Both the position numbers and the translations under genes were made by a program. A DNA stretch of 34,860 bases, from NCBI GenBank assembly GCA_031410215.1, contig JANNYQ010000057.1:1-34860 (forward strand), written 5' to 3'. Below are positions 3,506-28,493 of the stretch, one piece after another (the stretch's first letter is position 1; every line of letters begins with the position of its first letter). This stretch comes from Candidatus Altimarinota bacterium (lineage in GTDB: Bacteria; Patescibacteriota; Gracilibacteria; BD1-5; UBA2023). Under the pieces are notes generated by a model. It had not been told where the DNA came from. It saw only the letters and a program-made list of their open reading frames with translations, and ran no database searches.

Positions 3506-4270
3506 ATGGCAACTCCTCTCGATATGCAACCAGTAGTTGATACTCAGTTAGAATCCCAAAAATCAAATATACTCGAAAAAACTGGTGAAGCCTGCAAGAA
3601 GCTCGGTATCGCAGTAGCCACAGCAGCTGCACTGCATTGTTCAGCATTTGCTCAATCTGCAGTCAGCTCGTCCCCTGCCGCTATGCTTCAGGTGACAAAA
3701 GGCTCAGGGGTATTGACAATCGATGGGAAGAATATGAGTTTTACGGAGTTTTTGACGAAATATCCAGAGCAGAAGGAGAGAAGTGCTATCTTAGGAAAGA
3801 TGGATGAAAAAACTGAAGATGCATTTCGTGACTGGGAGATATCGATGAGGAAAAATGAATCAAGTAGTATAGAAGTAGCGTTGAATCAAAAAAAAGAAGA
3901 ACGCAAAGGGGTAAATATAGCGTTGAATCAAGAAGATAAAGAATTAGTGAATGATAAAGGAGGATTGAATCAAAAAAAAGAAGAACGCAAAGGGGTAAAT
4001 ATAGCGTTGATTCAAATCACTCAAGTAAATGCTATACTCGATGATCTCATGCAGAATCAATGACTCAAAATGGCTTCAGAAAGTCAGAAAAAAATCAACC
4101 AAGAAAAAGGATCAATAATATTAGCGGCACTCGATAATCCTACGATCACTCAAGGGATGAAGCCTGAAACAATATCAATATTGAGAACTATTGGTAATAG
4201 TCTACAAAAAGGTGGTAATGTTGCCTATATAAACAGTGAAGTCGTCAAAAATATAAAAATTGCCTTATAG
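3506..4270 (+). CDS. Hypothetical, probably exported coiled-coil repeat protein (254 aa)
   Basis: ORFs 3506-4063 and 4070-4270 join across TGA. Signal-like segment KKLGIAVATAAALHCSAFA-Q and 14-aa repeats. Confidence 0.75.
3697..3843 (+). repeat. Direct repeat, copy 1 (partner 4570-4716)
   Basis: 109 bp with 1 mismatch, then 13 divergent bp, then 25 identical bp. Offset between copies is 873 bp. Confidence 0.95.
3878..4003 (+). repeat. 42 bp tandem modules in order A-B-A
   Basis: A = ALNQKKEERKGVNI, B = ALNQEDKELVNDKG. Confidence 0.95.
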
Positions 4271-4330: not shown

Positions 4331-6217
4331 ATGTCTGACATCCCCTCTATCTCATCTGGTGCGGGAACTCTGGAACAATCCAAAAAGAATCCCACACAAA
4401 TACTAGATTCCCTCCTCCAAAAAGGAGGTTTTCAAGTAACTCCAGAAGAGTTATCACATATTGATGCAGCAATTCGGCGGAATCCATCACTTCTGGAGAG
4501 TATAAATATAGATATCGCAGTAACTCAAACAAATCCGAACGAAAAATCCCGATTCGAAACAATATATCTAAAAGGCTCAGGAGTATTGACAATCGATGGG
4601 AAGAATATGAGTTTTACGGAGTTTTTGACGAAATATCCAGAGCAGAAGGAGAGAAGTGCTATCTTAGGAAAGATGGATCGCCCAACGAAAAATGCATTTC
4701 GTGACTGGGAGATATCAATTGAGGATATCTCTATAGCTCAGAAGAGTGGAGCGTTAAATCAAGAAGATAAAGAATTAGTGAATGATAAGGGAGCATTGAA
4801 TCAAAAAAAAGAAGAACGCAAAGGGGTAAATATAGCGTTGAATCAAGAAGATAAAGAATTAGTGAATGATAAAGGAGCATTGAATCAAAAATTAAATGAA
4901 ACAGAGCAACAAACTAAAAAACTCGTTGATCAAGCACGATCTCTGATGGATACTGGATCGAATGAGTTCGTCACTCGAGAACTCAATCAGATACAATCAG
5001 ATCCTACAGTTTCGCCTATCGCTCAGGATCTGATCAAGCGATGATCGACTATCGAGGATATCCAGAGTGGGCGACTCAACTCGACTATCGAGGCATATAT
5101 CATCTCGAACAACGAGAAGGCACTCATACCAAAAGACCCTCAAAAGGCCAAAGAATTCTCTGAGGTCGTCAGTCGTATGCGTGAGAATATCTGAGTGAAG
5201 CCAACACGCGATAATATCGATGCATTCGCTGCGAGCAAGGTACTCGGAACAGATAGAGAGCGGATCGTGAGCAATATGCACCAGATCGGATCGAGTGGCA
5301 AGTATGATCGTATGACCTGGGATGGTGAGACTCGGAGTGTCATATTCCATGGAGAGAGTGGAACACGGATACTCGATACCGCTAATATCCCACCTAGGGA
5401 AAGTATAATGAGGAATGGACTCTATATCTCTCGTGAGATCAGTCCAATAGTAGCTGATCCCGCTAGAGAACGCAATGAGAGCAAACGAAATGTAGTGGCA
5501 CAGATAGTACCAACGATATCTCGGGATATCAAAGAGATGCTCAGTGACAAGATGGAAGATGGGAATGAAATAGTCTCTCCAGAGATATGAGGTATGCTCG
5601 ATAATACCCTCTCTCATATCAGTCTCAGGAACTCGCAATCTGCGAAATTATCGCGAACTATGATCGAGACAACATGAGGTGTATTGCGTATGGAGCAAGG
5701 TCGTCTGAATATACTATCACAAGATAAGAGCAAAATCAATCCTCTCGATCCTGATATATGAGGCATCAAATGAACTATTACCAGGATCAATACTATCATG
5801 GAGTCACTCCAAAAGATACAAGAAAAGACTACTATAGAAGAAGAAAATACTCAGAGCAATAGGATCCTCTGGGATACAAACGCAAGAGATAATCTCTCAT
5901 GGCTCACGACAAAATATTTCGATCGTATAGGACCAAACGCTCAAGTCGCAATCGATCGTATCATAGGACTCGTCAATAGAGATCGAACTCTATCTAATCA
6001 GATACAACTCTGAGAGCCACTCAGTCCTATGAGCAAGAATATCCTAGAAAAATCAATAACCAAGCTCTGAGGTACTCCTGATATACTCACGAGTGGGGAT
6101 AAGCTCCCAATATTGCAAAAAAGAATCACAGAATCTCTCAACTATCCCCCATCAGATAGTCGCAGTATAGAGTGACAACTCCAGCAAGTTAACCCTGCAA
6201 AATCTGACATGAACTAG
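4331..6217 (+). CDS. Hypothetical coiled-coil protein (628 aa) sharing a cassette with the upstream gene
   Basis: ORFs 4331-5044, 5195-5590 and 5798-6013 are in one frame and join across TGAs to TAG 6215-6217. Confidence 0.8.
4570..4716 (+). repeat. Direct repeat, copy 2 (partner 3697-3843)
   Basis: Encodes KGSGVLTIDGKNMSFTEFLTKYPEQKERSAILGKMD...AFRDWEI in both genes. Confidence 0.95.
4751..4876 (+). repeat. 42 bp tandem modules in order B-A-B
   Basis: Same two 14-codon units as 3878-4003, in a different order. Confidence 0.95.
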
Positions 6218-17910: not shown

Positions 17911-20900
17911 TTATTGTATCACTGATATATAGTAGATCATCGATGGGAGATCGATAGTGGCTGCAGAGACATTACAGAACTTTGCCTCGACCGTATTGGC
18001 GGCTGACACTCGAGTATATGCTATGATCATACGATCAGCAAGTGCTGATGTAGGTGATATGGTAGCGACTCATCATATAGCTGCATTGGTAGCAGTAAAT
18101 GTCTGAGCAAGACAAGCAGAGGCTGCTATAGACGCTATATCAACAGTAGGTGCTACCTTGATAAAGGCATTGAGCTGAGTTCCGTTGGTTCCGAGCTCAA
18201 ATGTACCAGCGACATCGAGTTTCGATGTAGGGCTCGTACCGATACCTACATTTCCTGATGCATCGATCCTCATACGCTCTGTATTGTTAGTCGCGAATAC
18301 GACTGTACCATCTGCAGGAGAGAACATACCACCATCAGTATCTCCAGGAGATGAGAATAGATATCAGTTTGATCCATTGAATAAAGATCATCCCAATGCT
18401 CGCACTGCCCCGTCTACATCCAGCAAGCTCGATGGTGTTGATGTACCGATACCCACTGAACCGCTACTCATGATGCGCACTACTTCAACTGGTGCTATAT
18501 TGGTCGTAGTACTACGATTGGCGAATACGATATCTCCCTGAGTATTCCCTGTGGTACTCGTCGTGATGAATCAGATCTCAGCAGGAGCATATCTCGTCGT
18601 ACCAGCGAGTCCACTATAGCCGAATCCGATCGTCTGAAGAGCTGTTAGTCGGTTTTCGAGTCATCAGATATTGAGATATGGGGTACCATAGGCAACACTG
18701 AGATTGGCATCAGCTCATTGTATTCATCGTTTGATCATCATCTGTGGCACTGCAGAACTCGTCGATCATGATGGTGATCCTGCTACGACGAAGTGACGAT
18801 CTGGGAATGATGTCCCGATACCGACCTGTCCGCCACCACTGATTGCCTGGAGCTGTGAGTTGAGACCTGTATTGATATAGAGATACTCTGAGTGGTTAGC
18901 TGGTATCGAGAGTACTCTCTGCCATGGAGCTGGAGTCTGATAGGGTGAGTCGTTGGTATAGAGTCATCCTGTACTCGCTCAGTTGAACCGACCACTACGT
19001 GCAAAGAGTGGGGCATCACCACGAGCACCGAGTGCAAGTTGATACCCGAAAGTATCTCATTTTGCACTCATAGTGAACGAGTTATATGGACTCGCAGAGA
19101 GTCCCGTGACAGGATCAGCATTGGCACAATCATAGGCTCCTGGGGAACCATAGGTACCAGTTATCGAACAGAGAGCATCCGTACCGTCTTCTTTGAAATA
19201 TGGTCCATTGTTTGATGGGCCATCCCCCTTACTCACCACAAATGATTGTTTACCAGGGATAGCAAAATACTGATTAAAATCATAACTCACATTGAATGTA
19301 GTAAGATCAGGATTCGGAGTAGGTGGTGAATTGCGGAGAGTACCAGTATAGACGGCGATATTGCTGATCGGACTGATTGGCATGACCTTGCCTGATCAAT
19401 CAACACCAAGTGCAAGGACATTATTCGAGGTGAGAGGAGTAGAGAGATTGATACGAGCAAACCTGAGTCCAGAGTCATTGGCGATACCAGAGTCAATAAC
19501 GAACTTGGTAGTGAGTCCTACTCCAGTGCCTACACCAATATTGGTACCATTATCGAATATTTGAGAAGCATAGAGTCCAGTACCTCCAGTACCAAATTTG
19601 GAGATGTAGTTCTCTACTCCTCCTGTGATCCCTGTAGCTGTTGCACCTGAGAGTGATGATGACCATGTGGCGAGACCGGTGGCATCTGAGGTGAGGATCT
19701 TGCCCGCTCATGGTACACCTCCGGTGATACGCACTGTTCCGGATACCGTGAGAGTTGTAGTAGGTGAGCTCGTACCGATACCGACGAAGTTGCCCACATT
19801 GTACATCACGGATCCTGTGAGAGCATCTCAGAGGGTCGCATCCGCTCGTGGCATCTGATTCGGGAGAAATCCCAGTCATGAGACGCCCGCTGACCAGGCA
19901 CAGTTGGATCACATCTTATTCACTCCGTTGATCCACATACGACACTCCTGTCATCCATTCTCAGAGAGAGTGAGCATAGGATTGGTAGAATTCGTACTAC
20001 CGAGGGCCTCCACTGTGATATACCCGAGTGTAGCAGCTCATCAGAGGATACCCGTAATATCTCCTATATAGAGTTTTCACCCTGTCTCATAGAGTTGTGA
20101 ATTATTGATGAGTCCACCACTATCGAATTTGGATATATAGTTCGGTGTACCACTACTACGGACGAGATTATTAAGACCTGTCCATGATGATATACAGATA
20201 TCGTTGATACAGAGTCAGCTACCCGTATTGAGAATACTGCCCGATCCTCGGATATCGAACATATACTGTGGATTGATCGTGTTCATACCAATCCGCGATC
20301 AACTATAGTAGAGTGATGTAGGATAGAGCCCAGTACCTCCAGTACCAAAATATGGAATATAGTATCCAGAACCTCCTGTAATACCAGTAGCCGTAGTGGT
20401 ACCTGAGAATCCAGTCATCCAAGTAGCAAGACCACTCGCATCAGAGGTGAGGATCTTACCAAGACCTGGTGATCCTCCTGCAATCCGTATCTGATTTGAG
20501 AGATACAGGTTCTGCCATGGGAGTGCTACCGATCCGATATCGCGATACATAGCAGGAGCTCATACATCTGGGAGTAGAGATCCTGATATCGTCACATTGG
20601 CTACAGTACGATTGACTATCGTATCGGTGATGACCTTGCCCTGGACAGTGATATCACCTGTGATGAGAGCAGATCCTGATACTGTGAGCTTCGCTGATGG
20701 AGTCGATGTACCGATACCGATATTGGATCCTGAGTTGTAGATATTGACTGAGGGTACCCAGGTTGTACCATTGTAGTAGAGTGTAGAACCGAGCACTGAT
20801 CCAGAGATAGAGAGTCCTGTCGCGATCGGAGCAGCCCAGCTGGCAACTCCGAGTGCATCAGAGATAAGATAGTATCCACTGGCAGATCCACTCCGCATAC

Positions 20901-22872
20901 GGATCTGTCAGTTCACATCGAGGAGTGCTGTCGGAGATGTTGTACCGATACCGATACTACCACTATTACCATATATCCAGTTACCGATATTGAGCTGATT
21001 AGATCATGTTGCAGAGACTAGATTGACTCATGCACCTATGGCAATATTGTAACTACCAGATCCGAGATTTTGTCATGCATTGCTACCAATAGCAGTATTA
21101 TAGCTACCGAGCGTATTATTTTGGAGTGCAAATGCACCATTCGCTGTATTATTTGTTCCAAGAGTATTTGCCCAAAGTGAGCTAATTCCATTCGCTGTAT
21201 TATAGTTACCAGTAGTATTATATACGAGTGAATCATATCAGTTAGCTGTATTATAGTTACCACTACTATTATTCTGTAGACTGAGTCTACCTATAGCGGT
21301 ATTACCAGGCATACTGCCACCTCATCGACCTATTCTATATCAGTTGATGAGTATATCATATGGCACATCAAGTCGAGCTAATGGTACATTGGTACCTATA
21401 CCAACATTAGTACCATCATCGAATATCTGTGAGTTATTGATCCCCGTTCCCGTTGGCGTATATTTTGCTATATAGTTGGTAGTACCGACGAGTGGTCATG
21501 CGAGACCCAGAGTCGTGGTCGATGGTGCTGCTGCTGGAATTTGCCAAGTTGCTATACCTCCTGTATCACTCGTGAGAACTCTGCCATTTCATTGTGTGCC
21601 ATCAGCTATCTTGATATTGCCACCGATATCTAGACGAGCTATAGGATTGAGTACTCCGATACCGATATTGCCATTGTAGCCATAGATCACATTCCCGATA
21701 TTGAGCTGATTGGATGAGATATTACCGATATTGGGCTGTGTATTGTATCAGATGAATATATTATTATTTCCTGATGTCAGATTAGCTCCTGCGAGATATC
21801 CGAGAGCCGTATTATTGTATCCAGTATTATTATTATAGAGTGAGCTCATACCGACAGCAGTATTCTGGTATCCTGTGATATTGCCATAGAGGGCGTTATA
21901 TCCATTGGCCGTATTGGTAGCTATATTCCCTGCTCCTCGCCCCACTGTGACTCAGTTGATCGTAGCATCTGCGATAGTGACGAGATTGCTACTGGCACCC
22001 GAGAGGCGCATCCCCTCGATACTATTGCGTCGGAACACGAGATCCTGATTATCTGCGGTACCGACATAGTCAGTTGCTGAGGTAGTACCCGAGTTACCAG
22101 TCTGTCGCCAGAATGCTCCAGAAAGAGCGAAGTCTGCAGTACTCACAGAGGGTTGCCATGAGGCGAGACCCGTCGCATCAGAGGTCAGTACTCTCCCTGA
22201 GGCAAATCCACCACCCATGATACGGATCGTCCCCGCAATATCGAGCTTGGCACCTGGGACTGCAGTTCCGATACCGATATTGGTACCGTTATCAAAAAAC
22301 TGAGACGGATAGAGTCCTGTACCTCCAGTACCGAATTTTGATACGTAGTTCGCGACTCCTCCAGTGATCCCTGTAGCAGTAGCACCAGCAACTGATGATG
22401 ACCAATATGCGAGACCAGTGGCATCTGAGGTGAGTACACGATTAGTCCCAGGAGTTCCACCAGTGATCTTGACTTGTCAGTTGATCTCGAGACGAGCACC
22501 TGGAGTCGCTGTACCGACTCCAACATTGGTACCATCGTCATAGATCTGAGAATTGTTGATCCCTGTACCAGTAGGAGTATACTTGGCTACATAGTTTGGA
22601 GTACCGACGAGTGATCCTGAGAGGGAGAGGGTAGCATTGGATACTGCAGCAGTCGGGATGATCTGACAATGTGGCGTACCATCTAGACCAAATCCGTACA
22701 ACACCTCTCAGACATAACAATCTGTGAACATATTGGTGAAATACGTATTAAAATATCCACCAGTAGTCTCACTCGCAGGTGTACCTACAGGATAGGTCAC
22801 TGCATATGTCTTTGGTATAGCGAGTGATATGAGAGAGATGATACAGAAAAGCCGAGAAAAGAGAGATCGCAT
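17911..22872 (-). CDS. Giant secreted tail-fibre-like/adhesin protein A (1653 aa)
   Basis: One frame from ATG 22872 to TAA 17911 under code 25. Signal peptide MRSLFSRLFCIISLISLAIPKTYA, repeated VGIGT..P...L.V.G / VLTSDATGLASW modules and NTANG..AL repeats. Confidence 0.85.
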
Positions 22873-22915
22873 AAGGAAGAGTTACCAATTATAGTATATG
22901 ATTTGGAGAGAACTA

Positions 22916-25900
22916 CTATTTAGAAAGTTTTGCCTCGATAGCATCGAGTCGCTTCTTGAGTGACTCATTCTCTGATCTGAGAGCAATTATATCAGCTTTG
23001 TTTGACTTGACTATGGTAGCGAGCTCTTTGATAGCCTCGATCACTGGAGCGATGAGATGTCCATACTCGACATTTTTGTATGTCTTCTTAGAGTCTGGAT
23101 CCGTGTATTCTCATACTGCATCAGGGAATATTTTCTCTACCTCTTGAGCGATGAGTCCGAGATCTTTTTTATCATCTTTTTTCCACTTAAAGTAATATCC
23201 ATTCATCGCCGTGACCTTGTCGAGAGATGATGTGATTTTGACGAGGTCTTTTTTGAGACGAGCATCTGAGATATAGTAATAGGCTGGAGAGTTCATGTAG
23301 GCACCGGCCTGTATGATCGAGTCTACGTACATATATTTTCATCCGTAGCTGCGTATCCACGTAGGATCGCTCATCCACCACCCTCATCCATAGCTCTGAG
23401 AGTACCACCCAGCATTGCCATTGGATCTGAACCATCCATTGTTGTATATCTCATTTCCCGTTATAGATCCATTAGCATTGATATTTCCCATGTTATTCTG
23501 ACCACCATTAGTATCCCAATATACCATCCAGCTCCCATATCCATTGAGGAATCACATCACATTGGAGTTCGCATGGATAGACTTGGGTCATCCAGCTGAT
23601 TCGTCAGTATCAGGCATAAAGAATCGTGAAGAGGTAGTTCCAGCAGAGCCATCTGCTACTCTCGCACTATCGACACGTACCCCATAGGTACTCCCTCCAT
23701 TCCATCACATGAGTGTAGGGTAGCTCGCTGACCATGGTGCTGATGAATCAGTATTGCTGATAGCTCCTCCAGCAGGTGACGTACTAGCAGAAGCATCGAT
23801 GATGACATGACCATTTCCATAGTTCTTCCATCTCATATATTGAGAGGTACCTATATCGAGAGTAGAGTCAACCCGAGCGGTATCACCGAGTGACTTTGCT
23901 GTGACTCCAGCCCATGTGACAGATGATGTAGCCGTCTGCCAACTCGCAAGTCCTGATGCATCTGAGGTGAGGACTTTGCCAGCTCCTGGTGCACCTCCTG
24001 TGATCTGTAGAGTACCATTGGCTACGATATTTTTTGCTGCAAAGTTCTCATATCCAGTACCTGGATTATCGAACGTACGGATAGCTCCATCAGATCCCAT
24101 ACCGATCTGACTCGCGACCCTCCCTGCCCAGTGAAATGATACTCTCGGAGCCTCAGATACTACTGCTGACTGGGCTCAGGCAAAGTTGAGCTCTCGTACC
24201 TCGAGTGCCGCATTGGAGTATGATGAGCTATTGGTGGCGGAGGCCATCTGCCAGTCTCCAGCAGCATCATTGCGGTGAAAATTGGATGGATTGATACCTC
24301 ATGCAAGTGTAGAGTTAGCTGCAAGTGTCGTACTATCTGATAGATCGACTCGTCCATTGGTATTGGCATCACAGCTACTACCATATCCACTCTCACATCC
24401 GACTTCGAACATACGTACACGACCAGTGACATTGTTTGCGGCAAATGCTGGAGCACCTGTGATACCTGTCCATGGAACTGATGAGGCAGCTCATGGGGTG
24501 ATCCAACTCGCGAGACCCGCTGCATCTGAGGTGAGTACTTTGCCTGCACCAGGAAGACCTCCAGTGATCTTGACTTGTCCTGCTACTTCTAGTTTGGCTC
24601 ATGGAGTCGTAATACCGATACCGACATTACCATTGGTCAATAGAGTCATGACGCTATTACCATATCATGCAAATAGTACTAATGGATGCGAACTCTCAGT
24701 ACCTATGCTACCAGCTCATCATGCAATAGGCCAAGATGAGTGACTAAATATTCCGGTTTTTACTCCTGCTGTATTTTCTGTTGCGAGGATTTTTGCGGTA
24801 CCTGCTCAATTGACATCCAATACTCTTCCCCAACCCTGAACATTGCTCGGAGTTGCTGTGCCGATACCTATATTCCCACTCGTTCCATAGATCCAGTTCC
24901 CTATAGAGAGTTGATTGGATCCAGTAGCAAATAATACCTGTGCATTGCTACCTATAGCGATATTGGATGATCCCGTAGTGATATATATACCTGCAGATCT
25001 TCAGATAGCAGTATTATCACTTCCTGTGGTGTTGTATCCGAGAGCATAGATACCATTGGCAGTATTATTAGCTCCACTTGTATTGAATCCTAGAGAAAAT
25101 GCACCATAACCAGCATTATAGTCTGCGTTATTTTGATAGAGTGACTGATATCCATAAGCACTATTGGCACCGCCTGAAGCATTTCCATAGAGAGATTGAA
25201 ATCCATAAGCGGTATTAGCACTTCCTATGCTATTAGCAAGAAGTGCTCAGACACCATTGGCAGTATTATGGTTTCCTGTAGTATTACTATAGAGAGATTG
25301 AAGTCAATTTGCAGTATTGAAGTTCCCTGTAGTATTTTGAGCAAGTGCATATGCTCCATTTGCAGAATTCTGTATTCCAGTGGTATTATTCGTGAGTGCC
25401 CGAAATCCGATCGCCGTACTCTCTGAGGCGAGATTTTGCCAGAGAGCTCAGAACCCAACAGCTGTATTACCAGCACCAGTAACATTGTACATGAGAGCAT
25501 TTACACCATTTGCGGTATTCTGGTTTCCTGTGGTATTGGAGAAGAGAGCATAGACTCCATTCGCAGTGTTACTGACTCCTGTAGTATTGGCATAGAGAGC
25601 AGAGTCTCCATCGGCAGTATTCTGAACTCCTGTGGTATTGAATCTGAGGGTAGACATTCCATTTGCAGTGTTACTACCTCCGGTGGTATTGGTGTAGAGA
25701 GAATACACTCCATTCGCGGTGTTATAGTTTCCCGTGGTGTTAGAGAAGAGAGCAGATTGTCCATTTGCGGTATTGCTGACTCCTGTGGTATTAGACTGGA
25801 GAGCAGATTGTCCATTTGCGGTATTATAGTTTCCAGCAGTGTTGGATTGGAGAGCAGAGACTCCATTCGCAGTGTTGGAGCTTCCCACGGTGTTGTACTG

Positions 25901-27064
25901 GAGAGCAGAGACTCCATTCGCAGTGTTGTATCCCCCGGTGGTATTAGTAACCAGAGCATTGATACCATAACACGTATTGCTAGATCCACTTCCAGGACAT
26001 ACTTGTCACGATGTTGTCGCTATCCAACTCGCGAGACCAGTTGCATCACTCGTGAGGACTTTTCCGACTCATGGTGTCCCTCCGGTGATCTTCACCTGTC
26101 CTGCTACTTCGAGCTTGGCACCTGGAGTCGTAGTTCCGATACCGACATTTCACCCGGCGGCATTGATCGCGACAGCGGTATACGGAGAGTCTGACTGGAT
26201 GTTGTATATACCAGCTGCATCGATACCTGTCCAGTACTTGCGGACACCCCCGATCAGCCATTCCATATAGTTGTATGTGGTACCACTTGTCTTGTTGAGT
26301 CTGAGGAGATTGTCCTGTGTTCCTGCTATCTCGAGCTTGGCTCCTGGAGTGTTTGTTCCGATACCGACACTGCCTGTACTCGCCTGTATCACATTGGCTC
26401 CTGAAAGTCCCCAAGTAGTATTGTTCGCTGGAGTACCTGCCGAGGTCTTCACACAGTAGAGGAGAGCTACGTTGCGGGGACGAGTTTCAGTACCTGTACG
26501 AGGCGTTCAGTTTACTCAATCTGATATTGGTCATGCGGTGTTATAGGGTAGTAATCCAGTATAAAACTGACCACCTCATCCAGTCACATTCCATCAGCTC
26601 ACAAGATTTCAAAGTATGTTGCTAGTTGTATGGATATGCCCCTGCATAGTATCAGTCTGAGTACTCGCGAGTACTCGGCCAGTATCGACTCCCCGACCAT
26701 TGTCCCATCATCTGATGAACTCACCCCTGAGATCAGGATTGCCACCAGTACCATCTGCCGGTGACCATCCTGATGGACATGATGCGAGGTTGAACGCTGA
26801 TATCGTCCCTATCGGTGCCTCAGCTCCAGTTCATGATCCTCAGGCAGTACAGAGTAGTATCCCAGTCGGTGAGAATCCCCTCACTACATCTCATCCGCTA
26901 CATCCACTGGTGTTAAACATGTTGGTGAAGTACCCATTGAACGTACCACTTCATACTTCTCCACTAGGCGTCGTAGATGGATATGGGATGGCTGATACCA
27001 TCGGTGTGAGCATGAGAGCTACAACGAATGAGAGGAGCGAGAGGAGTGAGATATATATTCGCAT
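22916..27064 (-). CDS. Giant secreted tail-fibre-like protein B (1382 aa) with a tail-collar-type segment and a C-terminal S74 intramolecular chaperone
   Basis: One frame to TAG 22916. Signal peptide, PDLRGEFIRGWDNGRGVD...ETRPRNVALLYCVK, 18-aa repeats, and SDARLKKD...LGLIAQEVEKIFPDAV...VIEAIKEL followed by a coiled coil. Confidence 0.88.
24950..25985 (-). repeat. Tandem ~54 bp (18-aa) repeats, consensus NTANGxSALxSNTTGxx
   Basis: CCATT(C/T)GC(A/G)GT(A/G)TT recurs every 54 bp. The array is homogeneous at 25450-25960 and more degenerate at 24950-25440. Confidence 0.9.
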
Positions 27065-27107
27065 ACTGGGATGATTAGAGAAATATGGAAGCAGTGAGAG
27101 GAACTCG

Positions 27108-28493
27108 CTATCTCGACTCGGCGAATCATGGAGGAGGATCAGTGAGGATAGCTGGATCATACTCTATGATCATGACAGCATCTTTGATCTTTGCTACACT
27201 TGATCTCTGCGTTGGGAGTGATGATTGACTAGTGATGAGCGGATTGTAGGTACGGAAATAGTCCCAATCATAGGAGTAGACATTGGCCTGGTTACACCCT
27301 ACTACGAGTGCAGGACAGATAGGTGGAGTCTGTTGAGATCCACCGATTGTATTCTTGGATGCCATGAGTCCTCGTATATAGAGTTGATTCTGTGGGATAT
27401 TCCATATACCCGTATTACTGTATTTGATTATAGGTGCTACTGATGATGCCTTGTCTCCTGAGAATATACTCCCCTCAGCATAGAGATACGCATAGATACG
27501 CTTCACCTGATCACTGATGACGATATTGCCTCCATTTCCTGTGATAGGATCCTTGAGAGCGATGAGTCCGATAGTACGATTGGCCCAGAGGAGTGAGTTC
27601 ACATCGACATCATTGATGACGATATCTCAGCCGATGACGATGAGAGATCTCTTCCCTGCTGTGAGGTATGGAGTGAGACTCGAGAGCTCGATACGCAGAT
27701 CAGATCATTTTCTGATTATAAAATCAAATTTAGTATCTGTACTGACAGGATCAAGATCACTATCACTGATATTTCTACTCATGAGTGCTATATTTTTGCG
27801 AATCATATTAAGGATATTCGCATGATTGATTGACTTGTAGCTGTATCCAACATCCTGATTGACTACTCCGTTGTTCTGGACTGAGAACACTCGTGACCCT
27901 GCGATATTCCCCACAATCGCGATCTTGGAGACGAAGTTGATCGGCACACCCGCTAGTGGATCGACGATAGTAGTCGGAGTCGGGAGTAGAGATCCAGATA
28001 CACTCGTCCACATAGGGATCCATCCGAGCGACCTGCTCCAGCCCCATCACTCGATATTACCGGTATTCGGATTAAAATAAGTACCTGAGCTCGTCCCCCC
28101 AATATCTGTAGCTGAGAATGCTATCCATCCAGCATTCTGACTCCAGGCGTACCCACTCATAGGACACAGCTGAGTGGCACCAGTCCATATCGTAGTAGGG
28201 CATACTATCTGTGCGGTGGAGCCTGCTACACCATGAGAAAATGATACCCATCAGACATTGCCGAGCCAGAATGCTCCAGAGAGAGTACCATCAGACAGGA
28301 TAGTGCCGCTCCCGACATCAAAATTGACTCTTCCAGGATATCCACCACCAGTATAGCTCGTACCACCATTACCACTCCACCCATTATTGATAGGAAAAAT
28401 CCCCCTGAGAGAGATGGTAGGATTCGAGAGAGCGACGAGAGCTCCGATAGAGAACAAGCTGATCAAAAGAGCGACGAATATCTTGCCTTTCAT
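27108..28493 (-). CDS. Secreted CPR-type protein (461 aa), possibly pilus- or surface-fibre-associated
   Basis: Signal peptide MKGKIFVALLISLFSIGALVA, GAFWLGNVGWVSF / GYAWSQNAGWIAF repeats, a beta-helix-like IYAYLYAEGSIF..QLYIRGLMASKNTIGG segment and a terminal YDP..L..PPPGF. Joined across TGAs to TAG. Confidence 0.8.

Follow-up and report, generated by a model that had tools for sequence, protein, structure and literature searches.

The stretch of DNA analysed here (the window; 34,860 nucleotides, contig JANNYQ010000057.1 of a Candidatus Altimarinota bacterium of the Gracilibacteria) contains three co-directional minus-strand genes separated by 43-nt gaps. They encode a conserved partner protein (P3) and two tail-fibre-like surface proteins, proteins B and A, in this order (Table 1). 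Proteins A and B share a short N-terminal domain (NTD), which is the main subject of this study. The window was translated with genetic code 25 (TGA = Gly), and the long open reading frames are seen under this table only; in-frame TGA codons number 38 in protein A and 32 in protein B. The leaders of both proteins are Sec-type signal peptides, and the NTD lies directly behind them. Protein A begins with MRSLFSRLFCIISLISLAIPKTYA and continues as VTYPVGTPASETTGGYFNTYFTNMFTDCYVGEVLYGFGLDGTPHC in the NTD, and in protein B the leader ends in TPMVSA and is followed by IPYPSTTPSGEVGSGTFNGYFTNMFNTSGCSGGDVVRGFSPTGILLC. The frame of protein B is open from position 27160, 32 codons upstream of Met33, and the likely start is Met33 at position 27064. 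The open upstream extension (27065–27160) overlaps the 3′ end of the P3 gene (27108–27160) and is also present in locus L021 of the same genus.

Table 1. Positions of the P3, B, and A genes and of the features within them.
Feature	Position in the window	Strand	Evidence or remark
Protein A, tail-fibre-like surface protein without S74	17911-22872	minus	1653 residues
Signal peptide of A	22801-22872	minus	MRSLFSRLFCIISLISLAIPKTYA
NTD of A (residues 25-69)	22666-22800	minus	VTYPVGTPASETT...GTPHC; one TGA = Gly codon; profile E = 3.2e-23
Protein B, tail-fibre-like surface protein	22916-27064	minus	C-terminal S74 chaperone
Signal peptide of B	26990-27064	minus	MRIYISLLSLLSFVVALMLTPMVSA; layout same in relatives
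NTD of B (residues 58-104, numbered from 27160)	26849-26989	minus	IPYPSTTPSGEV...GILLC; two TGA = Gly codons; profile E = 1.4e-22
Tail-collar-like stretch of B (residues ~105-241)	26438-26848	minus	PHROG phrog_523, phrog_327, phrog_1800
Peptidase_S74 intramolecular chaperone of B (residues 1298-1349)	23114-23269	minus	PF13884, E = 4.1e-16
P3, conserved partner	27108-28493	minus	461 residues

In a BLASTP comparison of A and B, the N-termini give a separate match (A 3–69 and B 38–104; 28 of 69 residues identical, E = 6e-9), and 22 of the 54 columns are invariant in the two-sequence alignment of the NTDs. A profile built from these two segments only matched 22 of 61 related genomes at E ≤ 0.01, and the match lies directly behind a hydrophobic signal sequence in all 20 loci listed, indicating that the resemblance between A and B is beyond chance. 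The matched genomes comprise 15 of 17 in the same genus and 21 of 36 in the same family; the remaining two families of the order gave no match in 24 genomes. A regular-expression match in contig C33 of the source genome was dismissed as a chance occurrence in an unrelated frame. In an alignment of 25 sequences (the A2 alignment), Gly17, Tyr22, Cys30, and Cys47 are invariant, and Ala2, Pro6, Phe23, Asn25, Phe39, and Gly43 are nearly so. Compared pairwise, 24 genes are on average 41.5% identical in the NTD, 32.3% in the next 60 residues, 29.5% in residues 61–120, and 23.1% in the leader.

The NTD corresponds to no named family in the collections searched. Neither Pfam nor NCBIfam gave a family over A 25–69 or B 58–104 at E ≤ 0.1, and the NTD has no matching family in PHROG. 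Among 37 NTD proteins from the databases, none shares a Pfam or NCBIfam family on the NTD at E ≤ 1, and SLH, LysM, and other wall-binding Pfam families do not match the NTD proteins. The NTD profile has no match among Protein Data Bank (PDB) sequences (best E = 1.5), nor does the homologue P0004 used as a query. The disulphide subdomain of PBCV-1 P7 (PF25636, PBCV1_P7) was considered and rejected, as it scores 17 bits on one divergent copy, against a cut-off of 30, and is found in none of the 37 proteins elsewhere. No paper describing the NTD or P3 was found in a literature search in which sequence motifs were unsearchable and supplements lay outside the search. These results bear on a sequence-only reading of this DNA, which had proposed a conserved, two-Cys N-terminal segment of no named family, followed by different sequences in the two fibres. 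Its NTD strings agree exactly with the translations and stand after the signal peptides, its conserved family with two Cys residues and without a name is borne out, and the profile search it suggested does find homologues. The NTD is a new domain family and the NTD/P3 pair is a new two-gene cassette, both within a known kind, modular surface adhesins or fibres with a common anchoring end.

The NTD spans about 45–60 residues and consists of three parts: an arm, [VI]-x-Y-P-x-x-[TP]-P-x-G-E, a helix, G-G-x-F-x-x-Y-F-x-N-M-F, and a two-Cys hairpin. An AlphaFold2 model of the database homologue P0023 (37-row alignment; mean predicted local distance difference test (pLDDT) score, 82.7) shows a helical leader, an extended arm (residues 22–36), a helix (37–46) covering the G-x-F-x-x-Y-F-x-N-M part, and hairpin strands at 56–61 and 67–71. 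The invariant Cys residues, at positions 52 and 69 of the model, bracket the predicted β-hairpin and are probably joined by a disulfide bond. Disulfide formation outside the cytoplasm is plausible, since the source genome encodes a membrane-anchored Thioredoxin_4 protein (contig C51, 8559–9353; locus L070, 1760–2554) with CKYC as its CxxC motif. The adjoining gene encodes a 496-residue multi-pass membrane protein without a Pfam family; the two may be a disulfide-forming pair. In the fold search with the NTD model, no chain reached Z ≥ 2 among 48,161 PDB chains. Against the viral models in BFVD, nothing was found at E ≤ 1e-3, and the weak rows were tail-fibre or S74 proteins. Given the small size of the model and the signal peptide within it, these nulls are no proof of a new fold.

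The segments behind the NTD differ, as had been noted from the sequence. Protein A enters the fibre shaft directly after the NTD, whereas protein B enters the tail-collar-like stretch. The match of phrog_523 (tail collar) covers residues 84–241 of B (E = 9e-27), and phrog_1800 gives E = 9.5e-20; in the Pfam scan of B at E ≤ 0.1, S74 alone matched (59.4 bits against a cut-off of 22) and no Collar model did. The orthologues of B in the same-genus loci L021 and L022 lack the collar-like stretch, and their NTD passes straight into the shaft. This difference looks like a recent insertion or loss of a domain in otherwise orthologous fibres. The shafts of both A and B match PHROG tail fibre and spike families, and the C-terminal tip of A is common to loci L021, L022, L033, L035, and L049.

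The NTD is the common N-terminal module of Sec-exported surface proteins in one Gracilibacteria lineage, and the payloads behind it are swapped. When the last 150 residues of 40 complete NTD genes were clustered, 16 C-terminal clusters were obtained. A Pfam scan of 36 NTD proteins gave Peptidase_S74 in 11 (two of them also with Gp34_trimer), BspA-type LRR_5 in three, DUF285 in one, and TSP1 repeats in one; the remaining proteins, some of only 190–204 residues, have no Pfam family. The payloads thus include S74 and non-S74 tail-fibre-like shafts, and the idea of interchangeable fibres holds for the interchange and not for the restriction to fibres, since leucine-rich repeat (LRR), DUF285, TSP1, and small payloads also occur. 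Both S74 proteins of the source genome bear the NTD, and no fusion of pilin and S74 was found there. Two small S74 fibres with a divergent NTD, L042 (source contig C51, 12869–14113) and L051, match Pfam Shufflon_N (32.8 and 32.7 bits; cut-off, 27.5), which is the constant region of PilV of plasmid thin pili.

In P3, a hydrophobic helix at the N-terminus is followed by three G-x-A-W-S-x-N-x-G-W-I-x-F repeats, a predicted β-solenoid, and an invariant C-terminal tail ending in DPPPG. It matches no family in Pfam, NCBIfam, or PHROG, and its profile finds no PDB sequence at E ≤ 1. All the named proteins among its 89 database homologues are called 'hypothetical protein'. Three are assigned by source to Gracilibacteria or Altimarinota, and one assigned homologue is letter for letter the P3 of a same-genus locus. 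A model was made on a homologue with 76% identity (pLDDT 74.4; predicted template modelling score, 0.70). It shows a helix at residues 2–21, a β domain with the three GW repeats at about 32–160, a helix at 223–238, a β-solenoid at 255–372, and a final strand within the conserved tail. Foldseek returned nothing for this model at E ≤ 1e-3. In VIA-align, where the typical best Z score for unmatched models is 7–8, the C-terminal domain gave near-background matches with the β-solenoid fold of ice-binding proteins (DUF3494; 7bwx_A, Z 9.1, root-mean-square deviation 3.5, 148 residues aligned; 5uyt_B, Z 8.9; 3wp9_A and 6bg8_B, Z 8.4) and with the ComZ solenoid (6qvi_A, Z 8.2, root-mean-square deviation 4.2, 169 residues aligned). 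The best match of the N-terminal domain, among small eight-stranded barrels, is within the background (3dzm_A, Z 7.9, 109 residues aligned).

The genomic pairing of P3 with the NTD should be noted, since it is related to the proposed mechanism. In all 20 genomes with a full-length canonical P3, a same-strand NTD match lies 78–148 nt downstream of it; in G029, the end of the contig truncates the match. Related genomes are kin, so these do not count as 20 independent events. In the same-genus genomes without an NTD match, G006 and G011, the canonical P3 is missing too. The C-terminal domain of P3 is much more widespread, and 55 of the 61 genomes analysed in the order encode it, each in several paralogues. 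Sixteen further paralogous P3/NTD pairs were found, and in L065, from another family, a P3-like gene precedes four NTD genes. In the source genome, each of the four NTD genes lies in the same run of genes as a P3-family gene, three directly beside it and A one gene further on, behind B. The NTD subtype also follows the P3 subtype, as the P3 paralogue of the pilus operon described below occurs with an NTD missing the YP..P.GE arm. In locus L025 (8260–9615; contig C22 of genome G005), a TAA codon divides the canonical P3 between two frames, which reflects either a pseudogene or an assembly error.

The full NTD is found almost only in one Gracilibacteria family. The profile of the A2 alignment matched 13 of 301 genomes across the class, with 8 of 16 in the family of the window and 4 of 284 elsewhere. 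Three of the four matches outside the family cover only the half with the Cys loop, C-x2-G-x-V-x2-G-F-x3-G-x3-C, while the fourth genome, G049, has four NTD genes under code 25 with E of about 1e-10. The source genome, which is 76% complete, contains four copies, namely those of A and B and divergent ones on contigs C51 and C34. Among 1.84 billion database representatives, the profile matched 361 proteins at E ≤ 1e-3, of which 80 also passed E ≤ 1e-10. The best 150 of the 361 were classified by copy number: 50 have one full copy, which starts by residue 50 in 48 of them, 69 have the Cys-loop half only, in 1–9 repeats, and 7 have no stretch above the threshold; the others, with tandem copies, are considered below. 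The Cys-loop half is a widespread repeat outside the group, and on this point the reading from the sequence needs correction.

The half-only proteins include fibre-like ones with a different N-domain, and the relatives of one of them, P0014, are from Myxococcota bins. Others start with a pilin-like motif, G-F-[ST]-L-x-E, as read by eye; P0031 of this type scores 18.1 bits on N_methyl, under the cut-off of 21.2. No family models the Cys-loop repeat in a Pfam scan. The nematode 'CC domain' (PF04942) was rejected, since P0014 totals 26.3 bits (cut-off, 20.6) with no single stretch passing, and the other three Myxococcota-type proteins are under the cut-off. Extra Cys loops (e.g. ...YRPNNIPCSAGQILAWSGTLSNWICS...) also occur inside the shafts of NTD fibres, in L021 (2427–7478) and, three times, in L049 (4373–6934), and are similar to the half-motif repeated in Myxococcota fibres. 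Public gene calls of NTD fibres are often cut at the first TGA (P0023, 111 residues; P0082, 59 residues), and P0045 has Trp where relatives show Gly, which looks like TGA read as Trp. The NTD family is therefore under-annotated.

The most likely mechanism, with a probability that we put at roughly 0.45, is that the NTD docks on P3. The family, its position, the swapped payloads, the gene pairing, and the predicted folds are what the analysis shows; the disulfide bond, trimerisation (the other role suggested from the sequence), binding of the NTD to P3, and display at the surface are inferred. The NTD would be the cell-proximal 'carrier' end of the proteins and would tether interchangeable payloads to a common platform. 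The best candidate for this platform is the co-encoded P3, with its putative N-terminal membrane helix, small β-barrel, ice-binding-protein-like β-solenoid, and conserved C-terminal tail. On such a platform, the variable tips at the C-termini would face outward, where they might bind host or prey, an arrangement like that proposed, in the part of the report consulted, for the invariable N-domain of the Bdellovibrio MAT fibres (PMC10769870).

Several observations weigh against docking on P3. Nine NTD loci (L031, L032, L043–L048, and L050) have no P3-family gene in the DNA examined, six of them being in genome G263, whose P3-like genes lie elsewhere, and 14 P3-family loci have no detectable NTD neighbour. 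The anticipated proximity of the NTD to homologues of 27108–28493 therefore applies to the genomes with the canonical form of P3 and fails at these nine loci. In 24 of the best 150 representatives, the full NTD occurs in two or three tandem, partly internal copies; a free N-terminus is therefore not required. The expected position just after the signal peptide is kept by the listed loci and by nearly all single-copy proteins, but the NTD is not strictly a single N-terminal tag. The tandem-copy proteins with a source-assigned name are from Gracilibacteria. As a plain repeat unit in Myxococcota fibres, the Cys-loop half could be purely structural. On the side of P3, the fold matches of the predicted model are borderline, the best Z score being 9.1 against a background of 7–8, and the N-terminal helix may not be an anchor at all but a signal peptide that is cleaved off.

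One alternative, which we consider unlikely, places the fibres on retractile type IV pili and not on the cell body. P3-family proteins would be non-pilin tip adaptors in the role of PilC/PilY1, and the NTD would load adhesins onto the minor-pilin tip complex. In contig C34 of the source genome (11851–17892; locus L041, 2882–8896), a T2SSF/PilC gene, three N_methyl pilin genes, and a PilX-like gene are followed by NTD and P3 genes; the operon ends with a 211-residue protein with a divergent NTD lacking the YP..P.GE arm and then a P3 paralogue. Complete runs of three N_methyl pilin genes, a divergent-NTD gene, and a P3-paralogue gene occur in four genomes (G000:C34, G009:C12, G014:C3, and G011:C142, the last with the P3 paralogue preceding the NTD gene), and two more are cut by contig ends (G017:C3 and G010:C106). 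The NTD protein in the pilus operon of G009:C12 is a 678-residue S74 fibre. Placement after the core minor-pilin genes, as for PilC/PilY1, is thus found for the P3 paralogue in four genomes, whereas the P3 of the window is not so placed. The P3–B–A operon has no pilin gene nearby, and most of the P3/NTD pairs examined are away from pilin genes.

In modular pilins, the C-terminal module of PilC/PilY1, and ComZ, one conserved 'carrier' is combined with many 'effector' modules, as in the NTD proteins, judging from the portions consulted of the three reports (PMC8179133, PMC13711793, PMC6561018). Carrier-plus-effector designs, including an architecture with peptidase IPR030392, are described there as common among pilus proteins, and a Gracilibacteria protein represents one of the 15 commonest modular pilin architectures illustrated (PMC8179133, in part). 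ComZ, argued to be a tip-located competence pilin, has a solenoid that most closely resembles an ice-binding protein, in the relevant section of its report (PMC6561018). The P3 C-domain matches the ComZ solenoid, though inside the noise band of the tool. Conserved C-terminal tails join PilC/PilY adhesins to the minor-pilin complex, according to an excerpt of another report (PMC13711793), and the tail of P3 is invariant. The Cys-loop half is repeated in pilin-like proteins, and a paralogous P3/NTD pair ends a minor-pilin operon. Unlike the pilus carriers, the NTD proteins have Sec-type and not class III signal peptides and no N_methyl motif: N_methyl does not match A or B, and G-F-[ST]-L-x-E is absent from the NTD genes of the window. 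P3 itself has no Pfam match to PilY1, and its model has no propeller, being a predicted β-barrel plus β-solenoid.

An anchor to the cell wall or S-layer is less likely still. In this reading, the ligand of the NTD would be a glycopolymer or peptidoglycan in the cell's own envelope, as with SLH, LysM, and CWB2 modules, and P3 would be either an assembly factor or some unrelated surface protein under the same regulation. Short wall-anchoring modules of the SLH type have about 50 residues, lie beside the signal peptide, and occur in one to three copies on unrelated surface proteins; the SLH binding unit has three modules. The NTD is alike in size, position, and copy number, being a module of about 50 residues after the signal peptide, single on presumably trimeric fibres and in two or three tandem copies on non-fibre proteins. 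Of 20 single-copy proteins, 9 have the fibre motif; of 19 multi-copy proteins with 100 or more residues past the last copy, not one does. This fits a three-module binding unit, but the other 11 of the 20 single-copy proteins lack the motif as well. The NTD genes of G263 are scattered without a P3 neighbour, and glycosyltransferase genes flank the operon of the window. However, none of the Pfam models for SLH, LysM, or other wall-binding modules matches the NTD, which has a two-Cys hairpin and a dedicated neighbour gene, and such an anchor does not account for the strict pairing with P3 seen in 20 of 20 genomes. We regard as equally doubtful that the NTD is a purely structural element, a first Cys-loop unit serving as a cap or folding nucleus, with P3 as a trans-acting chaperone or assembly factor. 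Along the fibres of Myxococcota and others, the Cys-loop half recurs 2–9 times, 69 of the best 150 representatives have this half only, and further Cys loops lie within the shafts of A of L021 and of L049. Contrarily, the NTD is also present on non-fibre payloads (LRR, DUF285, TSP1, and proteins of 190 residues), the S74 fibres have their own chaperone and yet are still paired with P3, and the arm-plus-helix half is specific and conserved.

Docking on P3 and loading onto pili can also be combined. The NTD and P3 would then constitute a new modular display system of Gracilibacteria, in which P3, with its β-barrel, ComZ-like β-solenoid, and conserved C-terminal tail, is a membrane- or pilus-associated adaptor capturing any NTD-bearing secreted protein, and one paralogous set loads tail-fibre-like adhesins onto type IV pilus tips. 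This combination is improbable as a whole; if true, retractile pili with swappable phage-like receptor-binding tips would find and pull on hosts or prey.

By analogy, the NTD fibre proteins are MAT-like tail-fibre adhesins with swapped tips, and the mosaic adhesive trimer (MAT) fibres of Bdellovibrio bacteriovorus are the closest analogue. MAT fibres comprise S74 and non-S74 subfamilies, and their invariable N-terminal domain is presumed to attach to some element of the cell surface, in the portion of the report consulted (PMC10769870). As described there, both groups are chromosomal and phage-tail-fibre-like, occur in bacteria living on bacteria, and combine S74 and non-S74 subfamilies and variable tips with a common N-domain that has no PDB relative; the two N-domains are likened here by description. 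The present system differs in its code-25 Patescibacteria host, in the presence of the NTD on non-fibre payloads and in tandem copies, and in the adjacent partner gene P3, whereas the partial description of MAT fibres contains no P3-like partner (PMC10769870). Adaptor domains of phage tail fibres follow the same logic, the N-terminus docking and the C-terminus binding the receptor, and B ends in Peptidase_S74 while both shafts match PHROG fibre and spike families. Unlike phage tail fibres, A and B have signal peptides and a housekeeping context, and the NTD has no PHROG family or viral model at E ≤ 1e-3.

Like their relatives, Gracilibacteria depend on other bacteria as hosts and have hardly, if at all, been brought into culture. 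On the means by which such cells find and keep hold of a host, the literature, in the parts consulted, speaks only of pili and 'giant' surface proteins (PMC8080830, PMC11452946). A related predator, Vampirococcus, is described in one passage as having a single membrane, a fibrous surface, and giant membrane proteins (PMC8080830), and the consulted part of a Gracilibacteria study mentions pili and no fibres (PMC11452946). The NTD may be the means by which Gracilibacteria mount host-grabbing fibres. It is a sequence marker for the surface-protein repertoire of one lineage, and its profile is usable to annotate adhesin repertoires, which are likely host-range determinants, in code-25 metagenome bins. 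P3 is the single conserved candidate partner, and hence a candidate for the kind of surface element left open for MAT fibres. The P3–NTD pair is small and directly testable in vitro without culture.

The neighbours of the P3–B–A operon encode RadA-like, RecX, MetRS, two ABC-F, glycosyltransferase, Lgt, ValRS, and sigma factor proteins. A prophage origin of the operon was rejected, since these are housekeeping genes. On the plus strand of the window, two adjacent genes of no known family (3506–4270 and 4331–6217) share a long near-identical segment, KGSGVLTIDGKNMSFTEFLTKYPEQKERSAILGKMD..., and also carry repeated ALNQ(E/K)... units, representing a local duplication.

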